Part shown: piece by piece, positions 6,101 through 61,606 of the stretch
Layout: the number at the start of each line of letters is the position of its first letter
Numbering within the stretch: position 1 is the first letter of the stretch
Source of the DNA: an uncultured virus (IMG/VR IMGVR_UViG_3300043803_001696)
Lineage: Duplodnaviria; Heunggongvirae; Uroviricota; Caudoviricetes
Length of the DNA: 64,000 nucleotides
Strand: one strand, 5' to 3'
Virus record (IMG/VR): IMGVR_UViG_3300043803_001696
Made by a program: the position numbers and the translations under genes
Notes under the pieces: model-generated
Databases searched by the model: none
What the model saw: only the letters and a program-made list of their open reading frames with translations
Told to the model about the DNA's origin: nothing

Positions 6101-7802
6101 TATGACAATGAACGCAAAAATGGAGGAAACAAGACAAAAAGCACTCAATGCTGCGCAAGCAATTCGCTCAATGTCCGCTACGGACGCAAGATCAACGGAG
6201 CAAAGGACGTCTATGGTGATTAACGACCTAAAACGACTGCGGACTTCCAATGAGGATTTGACGCTTGGGAAGGATCGCGTTGTCACCGTTCCGGGTGATG
6301 TGGCCAAGCGCCTTGAAGCGGCTGGCGTTCCAGTAAGGTCGGACTTGCTTGGTAGAAAAGTAATTGAACGTGCAATGATAGAGTCCTATATACAGCAACA
6401 ATCTGGAATCTCTGCAGAGGCTCGCTTTAGGCAAGGGCAGTTAAGTTTTGAGGATAAACAAGCCGCAACTCCTGCTGTCATTGCGCCTGTTCCACCTGCA
6501 TCCCCAGACGGCTCCAAGCCTAAAGAGGGTAAGCGGATTCCAATTGAAGAGATCATGGATTATGAGAGTCAAAGAGCAATGCGTCTTAAGGCGTCCAATA
6601 TGCAATTGGCGTTAGATAGGAAAATTGCCGCCGCAAAAATGGCGGGCAATGATGCAGAAGCAGAATCGCTTGAAAGTCTCAGAGGCATATTAAAAATCAA
6701 TGGTGAGATTTCCGAGTTGGAGACGTTTAGGAATATGCTGATCGACAAGGAGGCTCAACTTATTGACAAAACTTTTACAAAAAAGAAATATGAAGACAAG
6801 CTCAACGACACAAATGTAAAAATTCACGAGCTCAAAAATGATCTGCAAAGTCAATACTTAAAGCTGCAAATTAGCGAAAAAGACCAACAAAAGAAGGCCG
6901 AAGAAGAGTTATCGAAGCGAATTGAAAAACAATTGCAACTTAATCGACTTATTGAAGATGCAGCAATTGCCGCTGGCACGATCACCCCAGGCGAGGCGAG
7001 AAAAAGAGCACAGCAAAGAGAATTTGATGATCAATTGTTAAGAGCCAAGGAGCTTGGTGCCACCCCAGAGCAACTCGTTGCTATTAAAGATTTCCAGGTC
7101 ATGACTCCACAAGCGGGGTCTATTCAGGAAAAGCTTAAGCTCTTGCGTGAAGAGTTAGAGAAACTTGCTTCTACTCAGGAAACGGTGACGTTCTCCGCTA
7201 ATGCCATTGGCGAAGCTTTTGCCAATTCTTTCAAGAGCGTCATTAGTGGTGCATCGTCTGCCCAGCAAGCACTTGGTAGTTTCTTCCAAAGCATTGCAGA
7301 CGCATTCTTGGATATGGCCGCACAAATGATCAAGAAATGGGTTGAAATGCAAATCATTGGTCTTGCTCAAAGCCTGCTTTCTCCATTAACTAAAGTCCCA
7401 GGTTCTTCCATAGTCAAAGGAATGGACGTGCCGATTGCACAAATGCCCGCCGGGATGCAATTTGCCAATGGTGGCATTGCCGCTGGCGGCTTCATGCCAA
7501 TTACTCCATTCGCTAGTGGGGGCATCGTCACTGGCCCCACGCTGGGCCTTGTAGGCGAGGGTCGTTACAATGAGGCAGTTATTCCCATGCCCAATGGCAA
7601 GAGCGTTCCAGTGGAGCTTGGCGGGGCCATGGGCAGCCCCATTACGAGCAACATCGTGGTCAACGTCAGCTCTGATGGTAAAACTTCTTCTTCTAACACT
7701 GGCTCCGATTCTGCCGGTCTTGGTCGCCGTCTTGAAGGCGCTGTGAAGCAAGTTATCGTGGATGAACTGCGTCCTGGTGGTCTTCTGTCGGGGAGGCGCT
7801 AA
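3192..7802 (+). CDS. tape measure protein
   Basis: 1536 aa, Ala/Gly/Gln-rich; tape-measure domain (AFAQMASKGQVMSEELKGQLGD); C-terminal FASGGIV...GEG...EAVIP and RPGG. Confidence 0.95.
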   Translation: MAVQDAELKLKVSLDLAFFRQQLLGLGQAAAGTSVPIQVKFDRLSVQNELNALGVNIRRRNYRLNIETNLSAEIAKADTLARKLSELSGQVKAAAGGTFSRGPQGAAGLERFMREQGLTGRAFNVQQTQEQIAKQAILSRLGKRSLIKGGYNIAGLEKIIRDLGGTPTGNRGQLTAQAKKLVEEADGIADAVFDNLKNLQMKLRPIRGQAQTSATRSMPNLNEMLDRMANLTSNPRAAQRMLRMLPESRVTTDLVGAANRQAAFQQQFPQGYTLPGFNAPRAFDPLLKTIAKSFSDYARTVNISNPWVGQIGNGIAGIIAKASTSPQATRLLPAVGGTTSPLNTLEARLASSRGMLGTGGGAAGSLFTGRGSVNPGVSMLSPVGISGGYRQMAAALANQAANPALAHRQIADIGFGAVPTSATGLSGQALNTVLNQAFLQRRGLGASGAQSRPIFSTGGVAVQQNIPGMAYPMAAGLGGSMGQFPMAGMMGPSTPLSINARTSMFGGGGGLPPRGPFGGFGGTGGMGGQFNRALGNIQLPGAGMVRELGDEFGMATKQVLLFGTAYKALAFATSFPAQVGQAVGALQTFNNTLKAVSPTAQEAKSSNELILDLVSRYNVPLQSARDGFTKLYASMQPAGFSGDEVRTIFTGISKAAAAFGMSADKVDRVNYAFAQMASKGQVMSEELKGQLGDVLPGAMAIFAEAAGFKGPDAIQKFSAALEEGAYKGTAMKVLLQNVGTIMNKEFGPGAEGAARTFQGAMNRMQNSLTLLYEGFEPIAVGFLNAVVMPLTNGIKQVTDGLNAFLTGTTAKTAGGFAFAQQLENLRPTFQGIQQNVQQVIPVLQQFGKVALQVAQTLLQIAGNPFVGYLARVYLSVLPLTLAIQTLNLRALVPMIANFLRAIPAFVAFNAAAAQGVTTNKALQLAMYTTGQTAGVTAGQIRTVSLALKAAFASTVILAVVAGIGMIIERLMTMNAKMEETRQKALNAAQAIRSMSATDARSTEQRTSMVINDLKRLRTSNEDLTLGKDRVVTVPGDVAKRLEAAGVPVRSDLLGRKVIERAMIESYIQQQSGISAEARFRQGQLSFEDKQAATPAVIAPVPPASPDGSKPKEGKRIPIEEIMDYESQRAMRLKASNMQLALDRKIAAAKMAGNDAEAESLESLRGILKINGEISELETFRNMLIDKEAQLIDKTFTKKKYEDKLNDTNVKIHELKNDLQSQYLKLQISEKDQQKKAEEELSKRIEKQLQLNRLIEDAAIAAGTITPGEARKRAQQREFDDQLLRAKELGATPEQLVAIKDFQVMTPQAGSIQEKLKLLREELEKLASTQETVTFSANAIGEAFANSFKSVISGASSAQQALGSFFQSIADAFLDMAAQMIKKWVEMQIIGLAQSLLSPLTKVPGSSIVKGMDVPIAQMPAGMQFANGGIAAGGFMPITPFASGGIVTGPTLGLVGEGRYNEAVIPMPNGKSVPVELGGAMGSPITSNIVVNVSSDGKTSSSNTGSDSAGLGRRLEGAVKQVIVDELRPGGLLSGRR

Positions 7803-40235: not shown

Positions 40236-40991
40236 ATGGCCCGTCCAGATATTTCTTTTGAAAGCACCGAGCAGCAGTTGGAATACAGCCTGAAGGTGCT
40301 CACACAAGCAGGCTTCACTCCATTGCAAATTGAACGCATTCGCAATGAAGTGGGTGTTGGTAAAAACAAGATTCCTTACGACAAGGAAAGCACCGGCTGG
40401 CGACGGTTCATGGTGCAAGAACTTCTTGCTGCTCGCATGAGCAATAGGCAAATCTCTGAAGTGCTCAATCTGTCCAAGGAAACGGTTAATGCCGACAGGA
40501 AGCATAATCGTGACATTTGGACCCAGGAAATCCTTAAAAGTCAAGACACATGGCGGGCGCAATTACTTCGTGAACAGGCAGAGCTTAAAGAGATGGCAGT
40601 ACAAGGCTTTCATGCCAGCAAGAAAAAGCGCATTACTACTACCAACGATCGCACTAATGAAACCACCACGAGAACCGAGGAAACGGCTGGAGAAAGTAGC
40701 TTTTTGACAGTCGCAAAAGGCTGCCTTGAGCAGCAAGCTAAAATCCTTGGTCTGTTTGACATTAAGCCCCAGCAAGAAGAGAAAAGCGGCTACAAGAACT
40801 TTTTGGATAGTCTTTCGTCTCAAATTGCCAAGATCAAAGAGGCAGAACAAACAGCTACAGACCGTGCTGTGGCCATTGAAGCCAAGGCAGAATTTGATGA
40901 AAATGGCGAACCCACTGGTCAAAGCAGGCCAATGCTTTCAGCATACGTTGAAAACGACGAGGACGATGAAAGCGAAGATGATGAAGAATAA
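40236..40991 (+). CDS. HTH protein, candidate terminase small subunit
   Basis: MSNRQISEVLNLSKETVNAD HTH; helical core ending QQAKILGL; acidic tail. Confidence 0.55.
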   Translation: MARPDISFESTEQQLEYSLKVLTQAGFTPLQIERIRNEVGVGKNKIPYDKESTGWRRFMVQELLAARMSNRQISEVLNLSKETVNADRKHNRDIWTQEILKSQDTWRAQLLREQAELKEMAVQGFHASKKKRITTTNDRTNETTTRTEETAGESSFLTVAKGCLEQQAKILGLFDIKPQQEEKSGYKNFLDSLSSQIAKIKEAEQTATDRAVAIEAKAEFDENGEPTGQSRPMLSAYVENDEDDESEDDEE

Positions 40992-55781: not shown

Positions 55782-55835
55782 CATTTGATTCCCTTCTTAT
55801 GCTATGATTACGGGGTTAACCACCCCGTTTTTTTT
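55778..55835 (+). promoter_or_regulatory. promoter overlapping a terminator-like hairpin
   Basis: TTGACA...TGcTATGAT, then ACGGGGT-taacc-ACCCCGT-T run immediately before ATG. Confidence 0.65.
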
Positions 55836-56477
55836 ATGGAAGAAATCTGGAAACCTATTCCTGGCTACGAAAATTTATACGAAGCCTCAAGCTTGGGTAA
55901 TATTAGATCTGTAGACAGGACTGTTTTAGATGAGCGAAATCAGAAGCAGCGCACGCGCACATTCAGGGGGAGACAATTGTCCCCAAATATCAATAAAGAT
56001 AGCGGCCGTCATTCTGTCATGCTTTCTAAAGAAGGAAAGACAAAAAGATTCACAGTCGCTCGTTTAATTTGCCTGGCTTTTCATGGCTTGCCTCCAGAAG
56101 GGAAAAATTTAGTATTGCATTATGACGACATTCATACAAATAATATGCCAGAAAACTTAAGGTGGGGCAATCACTTGGAAAATCTAGAAGATTGCGTTCG
56201 CAATAGAGGCTCTCATCCCCGTTACATTGATGGCAGAAGCAATCGCAAGAGAGGACCAGTCGGGGGCGCCATCTTAAATGAGTATCAAGTAAGAGTGTTG
56301 AGGCGACTTCCTGACCTACGCTCACTGCGAGGGTTGAGGGAAGACCTGGCCGAAGAGTGGGGAGTCGCTCCTTCTAGCATATCCAGCGCCAAATACAAAC
56401 AAACAGCGTGGAACACGCTATCTCCTGTGCCGCTATGGGAAATCGCCAACGTAAATCTTCCTTCCTACGGCTCTTGA
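55836..56477 (+). mobile_element. NUMOD4-HNH homing endonuclease
   Basis: EIWKPIPGYENLYEASSLGNIRS (NUMOD4); VARLICLAFHG...VLHYDD..TNN..ENLRWG (HNH). Confidence 0.92.
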
Positions 56478-56793: not shown

Positions 56794-56848
56794 ACTGACA
56801 CTTGTCTGAGCTTAAATCAGATGCCTCTTCCTATTGGGCTACAAGGGC
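56775..56848 (-). tRNA. trnL: tRNA-Leu(UAA), short variable loop, no encoded CCA
   Basis: Full cloverleaf: GCCCTTG/CAAGGGT-A, D GCC/GGC, anticodon TCTGA-ttTAAgc-TCAGA, T GTCAG-TTCAAAT-CTGAC. Confidence 0.9.
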
Positions 56849-56852
56849 GTGA

Positions 56853-57006
56853 GACAGAACTTATCCCGCATTAGGGAATTAACAGGTGCGGCCTGTAGTT
56901 CTGTCAACAAGAACCATGAATGCTTCAACTCATCCACGGCATCTCCGAAACCAGCATTGACGAGGATGCTGGTGCCGTTGGCCAACGGGCTCCTGCAGGA
57001 AGCCCC
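56853..57006 (-). ncRNA. candidate structured RNA upstream of the tRNA
   Basis: Multiple stems and two potential pseudoknots; extended -10 TGcTAAGAT at 57018-57010. Confidence 0.55.
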
Positions 57007-57012
57007 AAAATC

Positions 57013-57141
57013 TTAGCAGCGCCAGCTCCAAAACACAACCGCTCCTTCTGAGCACAATTGCTTATGTACGTGCCTTGCCTCTCGCAGGGGCACTACAACT
57101 TCCCTTTTCTGACCATGAAGGATAAACAACAGTCCAACCAT
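57013..57141 (-). CDS. hypothetical protein (42 aa)
   Basis: Read by hand: MVGLLFILHGQKREVVVPLREARHVHKQLCSEGAVVFWSWRC. Confidence 0.45.
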   Translation of the reverse strand: MVGLLFILHGQKREVVVPLREARHVHKQLCSEGAVVFWSWRC

Positions 57142-59560: not shown

Positions 59561-61606
59561 ATGTCGGAAGAAATCGTCAATCTTGGCCACAACGGCAATG
59601 AGAGCCTGCGAGTGGACGGTCTGGTGAATGCCCTCACAGGCATGGGCACTGGTCGCGACAAAAGCCAATTCACTTCCGCCCAGCCCATCGTCTTTCTCAC
59701 ACAGGAAGAACTAGAAAACCTTTATTCCGAGTGGATTCCCAAGCGAATTGTGGACATTGTTGCCGAACAAGCCACTAGAAAGGGTTTCAAGGTGCTGTTT
59801 GGTGGAGAAGGTGCTGCCGCTGAAGAGGTGGCTGGCATTGAGCAAATTATCGAGGATTTATACATCCTTGAGAACCTCGGTCTTGCTTGTAAAAATGCAC
59901 GACTTTTTGGCGGCGCAGTTATTCTTCTGTACATCGACGACGGGCGCCCTGCAAACCAGCCCGTAGATCGACGGAACATCCGCAGTATTGAAGGTATGGA
60001 AGTGCTTGATCGCTGGCAGATTGCCCCAGTGATCAGCGAGGAAAGTCTCTACGACTATTCCAAGGCCACTTACTATCAAATCATTTCTGGCGACCTCATT
60101 CGCCAGCCACAACTCACTTACATCCACAAAGACAGGATCCTGAGGTTTGATGGGGAATGGCTTCCCTACAGGATCAGGCAGCGGAACTATGGGTGGGGGA
60201 TGAGCAGTCTGCAGAGTGTTTATGACAGCTTTCGCTTCTATTCCACTGGCATTAGTTCTGCAGCCACGCTTCTTACTGAATTTGACATCTTTGTGCATAA
60301 ACTTCGCGGCCTGTCCACGATGCTTGCTGCTGGCAAAGAAAAGGACGTGCGCGATCGCCTGATCTTGAACGACATGAGCAAGAGCGTGTATCGCGGCTAT
60401 GCAATTGACGCAGAGAAAGAAGAGCTGGAATTCATTAGCCGCAACTTTGGTGGCATTGGAGAAATCCTGGAGAAACTGCGCATTGATATTATTGGCGCCT
60501 CACAAATTCCTCACACCATTCTTTTTGGGGAAAGCCCTAGCGGATTGGGCTCCACTGGCCGGAGCGAAGAGCGTGACTTTGCAAAAATGTTGGGTGACTA
60601 TCAGGCATCTCGATTCAAGCGCCCAATCAAGCATCTCATGGAGATGATTCTTCTGAGCAAAGACGGTCCCACCAATGGACAAGTGCCTGATTCATGGCGC
60701 ATTCATTTCAACGACTTGTTTGAACTGAATGAAAGGGAGAAGGCCGACGTGAGGGCTCGCGTGGCGGCAGTAGACGGCCGTTACATCCAACTTGGCGTGC
60801 TCCACCCGAAAGAAGTGGCAGAGGCCCGTTATGGCGGTTCTGAATGGTCAATGGAACTCACTCTCGACCCATCGCTTCCCCGTGAACTGCCGCAGCCCGG
60901 CGGTGAGATGAAAGTGCCTCCTGGTGGGCGCGACCCAATGAACGAAGAGAATGGCACTCTGCCGATGGACGGAAGCCGTGAGGTGCAAGATGCAGCAGGA
61001 TTGTTCTTGCCTCGCGACCTTGAAAAGGTCAGGGGCGACGTGCAGTTCAAAGACAAGGATCTTCACCAGCAAGCCATTGCTGCTACAAAGTCAAAGTTCA
61101 AAGTATGGCCGAGCGCTTATGCCAGCGCATACATGGTTCAGAAATACAAAGAACTTTATTCCAAGAAGCACGGTGGTGGCAGTGGCTTCAAGGGGGACGA
61201 TGGTGACGTGAATTACGACGATCTTGACAAGTGGTTCAAGGAAGAATGGGTGAGGATTGGAGCCAATGGAGAAATCCTTGGCGAATGCGGCGGTCGCGAA
61301 GAGAAGGAAGGTAAGCCCAAGTGCCTACCCAAGGCAAAGGCCCAAGCCATGAACAAGGAAGAGCGACAGACGATTGTAGCCCGCAAGCGTAAAGCTGACC
61401 CTGATCCTGATCGTCGGGGACCAGCAAAGCTTGTTAGCAGCAAAGTGGATGCTATTGAGCCCATGAAAGTGGAAGGGCTAATGCTTGCTGACATTGACGA
61501 GGCTGCGTTTATTTCGGACGAAGACATCGAGGATGCTATGAAGCAATGGAAGGAAGAAGCTCCAGCACAGTTCAAAGAGCTGCTAGAGGCTGACAATGCT
61601 GAATGA
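59561..61606 (+). CDS. portal protein (DUF1073-type) with C-terminal extra domain
   Basis: DGLVNALTGMGTGRDK, ARLFGGA, IHKDRILRFDG, GWGMS, IPHTILFGESPSGL. Confidence 0.88.
   Translation: MSEEIVNLGHNGNESLRVDGLVNALTGMGTGRDKSQFTSAQPIVFLTQEELENLYSEWIPKRIVDIVAEQATRKGFKVLFGGEGAAAEEVAGIEQIIEDLYILENLGLACKNARLFGGAVILLYIDDGRPANQPVDRRNIRSIEGMEVLDRWQIAPVISEESLYDYSKATYYQIISGDLIRQPQLTYIHKDRILRFDGEWLPYRIRQRNYGWGMSSLQSVYDSFRFYSTGISSAATLLTEFDIFVHKLRGLSTMLAAGKEKDVRDRLILNDMSKSVYRGYAIDAEKEELEFISRNFGGIGEILEKLRIDIIGASQIPHTILFGESPSGLGSTGRSEERDFAKMLGDYQASRFKRPIKHLMEMILLSKDGPTNGQVPDSWRIHFNDLFELNEREKADVRARVAAVDGRYIQLGVLHPKEVAEARYGGSEWSMELTLDPSLPRELPQPGGEMKVPPGGRDPMNEENGTLPMDGSREVQDAAGLFLPRDLEKVRGDVQFKDKDLHQQAIAATKSKFKVWPSAYASAYMVQKYKELYSKKHGGGSGFKGDDGDVNYDDLDKWFKEEWVRIGANGEILGECGGREEKEGKPKCLPKAKAQAMNKEERQTIVARKRKADPDPDRRGPAKLVSSKVDAIEPMKVEGLMLADIDEAAFISDEDIEDAMKQWKEEAPAQFKELLEADNAE

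Follow-up and report, generated by a model that had tools for sequence, protein, structure and literature searches.

A candidate family of modular structured RNAs, often followed by a tRNA or a tRNA-like minihelix, in S-CBS4-like cyanophages

RNAC and RNAD, two small stable RNAs of bacteriophage T4, are encoded among the tRNA genes of this phage and mature from precursors that also contain tRNAs. One published account describes them as late RNAs, "RNAs of yet unknown functions" (PMC9697503). They are the nearest known kind to the element examined here, which lies immediately ahead of a tRNA gene on the minus strand of a 64,000-nt stretch of DNA (hereafter the window) from an uncultured Caudoviricetes virus (IMG/VR IMGVR_UViG_3300043803_001696). 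Like the T4 RNAs, it would be a phage-encoded small RNA other than an mRNA. T4, however, is an E. coli myovirus, whereas the element belongs to a cyanobacterial siphovirus, is preceded by a conserved start motif of its own, and is kept by about half of its family where there is no tRNA.

Other described RNAs share parts of its architecture or setting. Phages of the phi29 type have protein-primed genomes and a small packaging ATPase. Their packaging RNA (pRNA, RF00044) is, like the element, a non-coding RNA encoded by a phage dependent on a packaging motor, and has a three-way junction with short complementary stretches in two of its hairpin loops. Identical pRNA molecules multimerise by intermolecular kissing (PMC4201828). 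The window phage differs in having a conventional large terminase and portal together with siphovirus tail genes, RF00044 had no match at E-values (E) up to 10, and the two hairpins of the element, being of equal length and joined by a short linker, would fit an intramolecular loop contact, unlike pRNA kissing. Purine-type aptamers are also three-way junctions in which two side-by-side hairpins are joined by loop-loop pairs; the likeness to the purine riboswitch is one of outline only, the element having neither an Rfam match nor an expression platform. In eukaryotes, the 3′ end of the long-lived non-coding RNA MALAT1 arises by RNase P cleavage at a downstream non-decoding tRNA-like structure (mascRNA), an arrangement resembled by the members of the family that carry a minihelix (11 of 72), with the differences that cleavage is predicted here and that half of the members have no such structure. 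Finally, the Glutamine-II riboswitch (RF01704) is a cyanophage structured RNA found in the same intergenic neighbourhood, separate from and downstream of the element, which does not match RF01704.

In our judgement the element is a real, strand-specific candidate for a structured RNA, and it represents a family of S-CBS4-like cyanophages that seems not to have been described before. A sequence-only reading of the window had proposed a two-domain pseudoknotted RNA that it could not assign to a family, and all the strings it quoted are present on the minus strand at the places it gave. Rfam 15 (4227 models) returned only the tRNA over the whole window at the gathering threshold; between 56500 and 57400, at E up to 10, it added three matches to snoRNA models (E 2.2-7.6), all outside the element, and in 10 related loci, at E up to 1, the tRNA, Glutamine-II, abiF and one chance match were found, the element being unmatched. 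The view of a structured RNA outside the known families thus held. No published description was found in the literature, surveyed by listings and abstracts, and a prior description is possible. A 162-nt stretch containing the element has a minimum free energy of -63.7 kcal/mol, whereas 200 dinucleotide shuffles average -48.8 (z -3.64; 0/200 as stable).

The strongest evidence comes from the three-way junction in the 3′ half. A covariance model (R1), built from 20 sequences and the supplied structure, was searched against 100 sources and gave 85 matches at E up to 1e-4, 47 of them distinct. Across these 47 sequences, 97.0% of the alignment cells hold standard pairs; sliding the 3′ partners by 1-3 columns lowers this share to 39-46%. 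Both-side changes occur in 17 of the 21 pairs, one of them in the loop-loop contact, and the covariation score reaches 0.557, whereas shuffles give 0.223 (0/500 as high); an earlier sequence set gave similar results. Because the alignment follows the model and the sequences share ancestry, sliding is a fairer control than shuffling, and its outcome is clear. From an unadjusted MAFFT alignment, RNAalifold recovered hairpin B only, because differences in helix length were misaligned; the other junction helices come from the supplied structure and model-based realignment, which leans towards the given structure. In the window, the loops of hairpins A and B pair through G-C, C-G and A-U. Family-wide (CCGCA with UAnnGC), G3-C6 occurs in 47/47 sequences and C4-G5 in 46/47, the exception being one lineage (L083, L128 and L166; L numbers are our designations for the sequences compared) in which CCGAA faces UGAUUC with a compensatory A4-U5 pair. 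This change is one evolutionary event, so that its support for the contact is real but thin. Both the junction and its complementary loops had been read from the window, and its relatives bear them out. The G-U pairs present here and in the 5′ half make the fold specific to the strand of the tRNA.

Upstream of the junction, four hairpins (P1-P4) follow one another. In an alignment of 24 sequences, 92.4% of the cells of this 5′ half are paired, against 28-44% after sliding, and both-side changes are seen in 12 of 28 pairs. For P1, which has 7 sequence forms among the 75 distinct members of the family, this holds for one of five pairs, most changes being one-sided (U-G/U-A, C-G/U-G) and several "unpaired" cells resulting from one-column misalignment of rows with a shorter or longer P1. 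P2 is 100% paired, with two of five pairs changed on both sides (G-C to A-U, U-A to C-G) and all five formed in 52/52 distinct sequences; its forms are CCGUU/AACGG (51), CCAUU/AAUGG (17) and CCAUC/GAUGG (7). P3 is 95.8% paired, with both-side changes in three of eight pairs, and P4 shows them in six of ten. The 5′ hairpin GGGCUUCCUGCAGGAGCCC and the CCAGCAU/AUGCUGG hairpin (our P3) had also been seen in the sequence-only reading, and covariation among homologues, the check it had proposed, supports P1-P4 as well as the junction. Its "domain 1" was not borne out. The enclosing helix ACGGCA/UGCCGU, assessed jointly with the pseudoknot, is compatible in 91.7% of cells, with 0 compensatory changes; the pseudoknot CUCGUC:GAUGAG has 0 pairs changed on both sides, and together with the enclosing helix it is equalled in score by 500/500 shuffles. 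The strands concerned are also used by P2 and P4, two hairpins absent from the sequence-only reading, both of which covary, and the evidence favours four separate hairpins. The enclosing helix and the pseudoknot may be alternative states. CCGU of the linker can pair either with ACGG of P2, a pairing broken in L093, or inside an extended P4. The duplication of CCGUU around AACGG, and a recurring GAAGC complementary to the 5′-terminal GCUUC, may likewise point to alternative folds.

The family is modular. P3 is a variable module, replaced by other hairpins in the L024/L025 and L042 types and duplicated in L014; the L051/L058 type has no separate P4, its UUGAAG-loop hairpin being shifted into junction hairpin B; and the L094/L133 type has shorter loops on both junction hairpins. 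Across these subtypes P1, P2, an exposed GAAG(C) motif (placed either in a loop or in a linker, and present in S-CBS4 too) and the three-way junction are kept, together with a G-rich GAUUCC in most. The P1 loop UGCA and the P2 loop GGCC are self-complementary, and their palindromy is kept by two independent variants, GGCC in the P1 loop of L029 and GGCGCC in the P2 loop of L008. Dimerisation between RNA molecules, a DNA-level operator at +1 to +32 or coincidence could each explain this. In the L008, L043, L047 and L093 lineages, the P3 loop could form an H-type pseudoknot (6 bp by eye) with the G-run before GGAUUCC, which was not seen in the window or in the L010 lineages.

A scan of viral contigs based on the large terminase (TerL) gave 36 loci, among which 25 distinct 1-kb downstream stretches could be aligned. 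The element stands at the same place in 20 of them; one stretch stops short of it, and it is missing in four (L023, L027, L031 and L035, with TerL 69-94% identical by best segment). In the more distant TerL relatives (L023, L027, L031, L034 and L035), R1 gave no E lower than 0.07 with filters off. A degenerate pattern on P1-P2 retrieved 67 viral contigs, 3 short contigs of metagenome-assembled genomes and 69 metagenome contigs, and the viral and metagenome contigs define the 75 distinct versions of the family, judged on the first 150 nt. The three contigs from assembled genomes carry the labels Bradyrhizobium, Bacteroidetes and Aquiluna and probably represent phage DNA that was binned wrongly. 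In one pattern scan of genome contigs no cyanobacterial genome matched, which left no clue to the host from homologues. With blastn against 50,697 GenBank phage records, the element alone gave nothing credible and only the tRNA part matched S-CRM01 and S-CBWM1.

The closest cultured phage is the Synechococcus siphovirus S-CBS4 (TerL 60.7% identical, same gene order). It carries the three-way junction, followed by 5 nt and a tRNA-Thr, without P1-P2; R1 matched this junction with filters off only (21.5 bits, E 2e-4), and it was also read directly. The S-CBS4 record annotates no feature at this place, and its counterpart of the element matched only itself among the GenBank phage records. S-CBS4 grows on Synechococcus CB0101, and since both the junction and the tRNA link occur in it, those parts of the family (P1-P2 excepted) are directly testable. 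The 5′ part of the S-CBS4 element (L109:6040-6150) is unrelated in sequence to P1-P4; it possibly forms an H-type pseudoknot (GCCUGA...GGGGGU...UCAGGC ACCCCC), and a GAUGAAGC motif directly precedes the junction.

Both ends of the RNA have candidate signals. Of the 73 distinct members with upstream sequence, 72 have a motif resembling an extended -10 element, TGnTAnnnT, which stops exactly 6 nt short of the P1 GCUU and lay outside the search pattern. Motif and spacing are kept where the upstream open reading frame (ORF) ends 30-58 nt earlier or where a different ORF runs in. We take TGnTAnnnT, as a motif, to be a promoter -10 element. This agrees with the start signal noticed in the window alone (TGCTAAGAT), and such a promoter-like element at a fixed distance before the first structured nucleotide points, at the motif level, to an independent transcription unit. 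Downstream, the 75 members carry a tRNA-Leu(UAA) in 24 cases (shorter than 80 nt in 12, 80 nt or longer in 12), an acceptor/T-arm minihelix in 11 and neither in 37, three being too short to judge; a tRNA or minihelix thus stands immediately 3′ of the RNA in 35 of the 72 judged members, separated from it by a few nt in the relatives (by eye), and by 4 nt in the window, as had been noticed before.

The minihelix (about 45 nt) takes the place of the tRNA in L010 (about 6149-6193), L011, L013, L014, L018, L060 and L111, among others, and consists of an acceptor stem plus a T arm whose loop is of the GGUUCGAUUCC type, the D and anticodon arms being absent. Compared by eye, its 7 forms show compensatory changes at acceptor pair 2 (U-G, C-G or U-A) and pair 4 (U-A or C-G), and the T stem occurs as CUGG/CCAG, CCGG/CCGG and CUGA/UCAG. 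An acceptor/T-arm minihelix is the classical minimal substrate of RNase P, from which, given the covariation, we infer that RNase P releases the upstream RNA. Among the three options offered by the sequence-only reading (riboswitch-like RNA, ribozyme, small RNA released by RNase P), the last fits best, in view of the 35 members just mentioned. An integrase/attP reading of the minihelix gained no support, no integrase occurring among the 29 of 74 ORFs scanned (those of 130 aa or more). The tRNA-Leu(UAA) itself exists in two forms at the same position, one of 74-79 nt with the short variable region seen in the window, unusual for tRNA-Leu, and one of 82-88 nt with the usual long arm (e.g. L009:4258-4339, L042:388-475); by reading, L050 and L072 have C instead of U before the anticodon.

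With moderate confidence, we favour the view that this locus is the gene of a stand-alone, trans-acting structured non-coding RNA of about 155-190 nt, confined to siphoviruses of cyanobacteria that resemble S-CBS4 and frequently given its 3′ end by RNase P. The architecture of this RNA has good support, and this mode of biogenesis is plausible. Transcription would start from the TGnTAnnnT promoter, so that the RNA would begin with P1, and the transcript would fold into P1-P4 in succession and then into the junction, whose hairpins would be tied by a loop-loop contact of 2-3 bp. Roughly half of the members, the window among them, would co-transcribe the RNA with a tRNA or a minimal acceptor/T-arm helix, and RNase P cleavage there would release it with a tail of 2-6 nt; in the remaining members a U-rich stretch following the outer stem of the junction would take this place. 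The released RNA could then act in trans, for example as a scaffold binding a protein or a machinery. A scaffold seems likelier than an antisense regulator, given the invariant exposed loops (CCUCGUCA, UUGAAG, CCGCA/UAnnGC), the swapped modules and the lack of a conserved antisense target. One candidate target lies in the 3′ part of the portal gene (61493-61502, plus strand), where 10 nt (AUUGACGAGG in the mRNA) are perfectly complementary to the P3 loop; about 0.4 such matches are estimated by chance. This target was rejected: it stands at the homologous place in some relatives and is not in L012, L013, L014 or L015, it is unchanged when the loop changes in L022, and it codes for a conserved D-E motif. 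A T-box-like "UUG specifier" in the P4 loop was rejected as well, this loop reading AGAAGG in tRNA-Leu-bearing members and UAGAAG in L029.

Several observations weigh against a trans-acting RNA gene of this kind, or against the strength of its support. The action in trans and the binding of a protein are themselves pure inference. With 37 of the 72 judged members devoid of any tRNA-like structure, RNase P cannot be the general maker of the 3′ end, and the runs of four or more T found soon after the outer stem in 16 of the 23 tRNA-less members with a parsed junction are weak evidence for termination in DNA that is AT-rich anyway. In many members, including the window, the upstream ORF uses the TAA of the -10-like motif as its stop codon, and a two-hexamer promoter scan did not call the motif. 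The invariance of P1-P2 is partly circular, the search pattern having required those bases, and the relatedness of the sequences makes the shuffle controls overstate significance. Conservation is also fairly high at the junction nucleotides (U in 47/47, a purine in 47/47, A in 42/47), which a ligand pocket could explain, and the loops are invariant. Lastly, two runs labelled RNA-Seq are probably DNA, yielding only pieces of 151-193 nt that are uninformative on ends and strand.

In the window and in 24 of the 72 judged members the element abuts a tRNA, always tRNA-Leu(UAA) in that group, which shares its putative promoter; such an arrangement would suit a cis-acting 5′ leader that drives, stabilises or times the expression or processing of this tRNA. 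We nevertheless regard a leader as unlikely, since the full covarying structure is kept in the 37 judged members without a tRNA or tRNA-like helix, S-CBS4 pairs the junction with a tRNA-Thr, and the tRNA is replaced by a non-decoding minihelix in 11 members. What follows the element is so varied (short or long tRNA-Leu, tRNA-Thr, minihelix, nothing) that it is not the cis element of one gene.

A riboswitch-like sensor would use the junction as its aptamer and switch between P2 and ACGG/CCGU, and between P4 and the pairing of the P3 loop with GAUGAG. The junction with kissing loops does recall purine-type aptamers, and its conserved nucleotides are compatible with a ligand pocket or with tertiary packing. 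The alternative pairings are also compatible in far more cells (the 91.7% given above) than after sliding (30-50%), CCGUU occurs twice around AACGG, and a Glutamine-II riboswitch neighbours the element in relatives. These pairings, however, show no compensatory change and one is broken in L093, no Rfam riboswitch matched at E up to 10, no possible expression platform follows, and the downstream gene is not constant, all of which makes a sensor doubtful at best.

We give a similarly low rank to the proposal that P1-P2 act as a DNA-level site, either as operators for a dimeric phage regulator or as a terminase or packaging site beside terL, a proposal that could be true in addition to the RNA reading. 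It accounts for the palindromes, perfect over 14 bp in P2 and nearly so in P1, that run through the loops, for the palindromy kept in L029 (UGCA to GGCC) and L008 (GGCC to GGCGCC), which a hairpin alone does not need, and for the position downstream of the terminase gene. It is opposed by the U-G pairs kept in P1, which are C-A mismatches on the opposite strand, by the half-sites of P2 changing together as in an RNA stem, and by the strand-specific, RNA-type covariation of P3, P4 and the junction.

The same preserved palindromy, not demanded of a simple hairpin, would fit a self-assembling phage RNA in which the loops of P1 (UGCA) and P2 (GGCC), and those of the junction too should their pairing be intermolecular, join molecules into a dimer or ring, working with the packaging machinery encoded alongside or as an RNA-only structure. 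This is improbable; if true, it would bring a pRNA-like or ROOL/GOLLD-like principle into a cyanophage with a conventional terminase. Equally improbable is a self-cleaving ribozyme freeing itself or the tRNA 5′ end without RNase P. The element is compact and multi-helical, has invariant loop and junction nucleotides and adjoins a predicted RNA processing site, but the Rfam models of self-cleaving ribozymes (hammerhead, twister, pistol, hatchet, HDV-like and all others) did not match it at E up to 10, its structure is kept in members with nothing to release, and the minihelix, a minimal RNase P substrate, is conserved where the tRNA is lost. A small protein, namely a 48-aa ORF starting with TTG (56839-56985, minus strand) that overlaps the region, can practically be dismissed: one frame is free of stops over the first 150 nt in 32 of the 75 members, but all three frames are interrupted in 41, helix lengths differ by 1-2 nt, substitutions are compensatory, and the ORF would run into the tRNA.

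Very few structured RNA families are known in cyanophages, and the element would enlarge their number by one that is modular and has good support. The natural series leading from a full tRNA to an acceptor/T-arm minihelix and to nothing bears on why phages place stable RNAs beside tRNAs.

Table 1. Features of the window in and around the structured RNA element, ordered along the minus strand.
Feature	Position	Strand	Remarks
Large terminase	59012-57636	minus	
ORF, 62 aa	57587-57399	minus	
ORF, 76 aa	57374-57144	minus	
ORF, 42 aa	57013-57141	minus	stops within the -10-like motif; context, outside the RNA
Extended -10-like motif TGCTAAGAT	57010-57018	minus	family form TGnTAnnnT; 6 nt upstream of P1 GCUU
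RNA element	57006-56853	minus	
P1, 5′-terminal hairpin	56987-57005	minus	window adds GG/CC; loop palindromic
P1 family core GCUUCC-UGCA-GGAGC	57003-56989	minus	
P2, CCGUU-GGCC-AACGG	56975-56988	minus	perfect 14-nt palindrome; adjoins P1
P3, (A)CCAGCAU-CCUCGUCA-AUGCUGG(U)	56950-56973	minus	conserved pyrimidine-rich loop
Linker GGAGAUGCCGU	56936-56946	minus	counterpart of family motif GGGAUUCCGU; conserved in most members
P4, GCCGUGGAUG-AGUUGAAG-CAUUCAUGGU	56913-56940	minus	conserved loop (U)UGAAG; in the minimum free energy structure
Three-way junction, outer stem GACAGAACU/AGUUCUGUC	56853-56905	minus	model R1: 63 bits, E 3e-17
Hairpin A, ACAGG-CCGCA-CCUGU	56896-56882	minus	
Hairpin B, UCCC-UAAUGC-GGGA	56877-56864	minus	
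Spacer UCAC, junction to tRNA	56849-56852	minus	4 nt; predicted RNase P cleavage site at the tRNA 5′ end
tRNA-Leu, anticodon UAA	56775-56848	minus	74 nt, short variable region; ARAGORN; Rfam tRNA 58.7 bits

The window phage is a siphovirus related to S-CBS4, as marked by matches to tape-measure, tail, Sak-like annealing-protein and primase/helicase genes, and its packaging genes are conventional, with a 458-aa TerL and a Phage_portal_3 portal. The portal gene is divergent from the terminase operon, and plus-strand genes converge on the element, namely those of the ribonucleotide reductase subunits, a NUMOD4/HNH endonuclease and a 70-aa ORF. The endonuclease gene (NUMOD4 + HNH_3, homing type; 55785-56477, plus strand) directly follows the gene of the ribonucleotide reductase beta subunit, beside which the S-CBS4 record annotates an "endonuclease VII". 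Farther away, a 251-aa ORF (40236-40991, plus strand) matches a PHROG annotated "Rnase E" (phrog_645, E 4.9e-9) and could bear on RNA processing during infection.

The ORF upstream of the element is conserved in many members as 42-46 aa containing ...VPLxEARxxH/NKxLxxxGAxV(F/Y)W...; the 42-aa ORF of the window had no match in Pfam or PHROG. Its homologues stop 9-12 nt before P1 in many, not all, members and are absent from the L008, L009, L024 and L103 lineages, and the one in S-CBS4 (L109:5859-5999) is missing from the feature table of the record.

Two further RNAs occur downstream of the element in relatives, neither being matched in the window at the gathering threshold. A Glutamine-II riboswitch (31.7-46.4 bits) directly follows the tRNA or minihelix at L109:6298-6354 (S-CBS4), L011:6211-6264, L015:6227-6281, L042:315-374 and L060:286-340; a TGATAnnnT motif similar to that of the element was read ahead of it, and in S-CBS4 it precedes the 39-aa gp007. 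The abiF RNA motif (RF03085) lies a few kb downstream, at L011:8120-8156 (minus strand, 48.9 bits) and L109:7018-7055 (minus strand, 34.3 bits).

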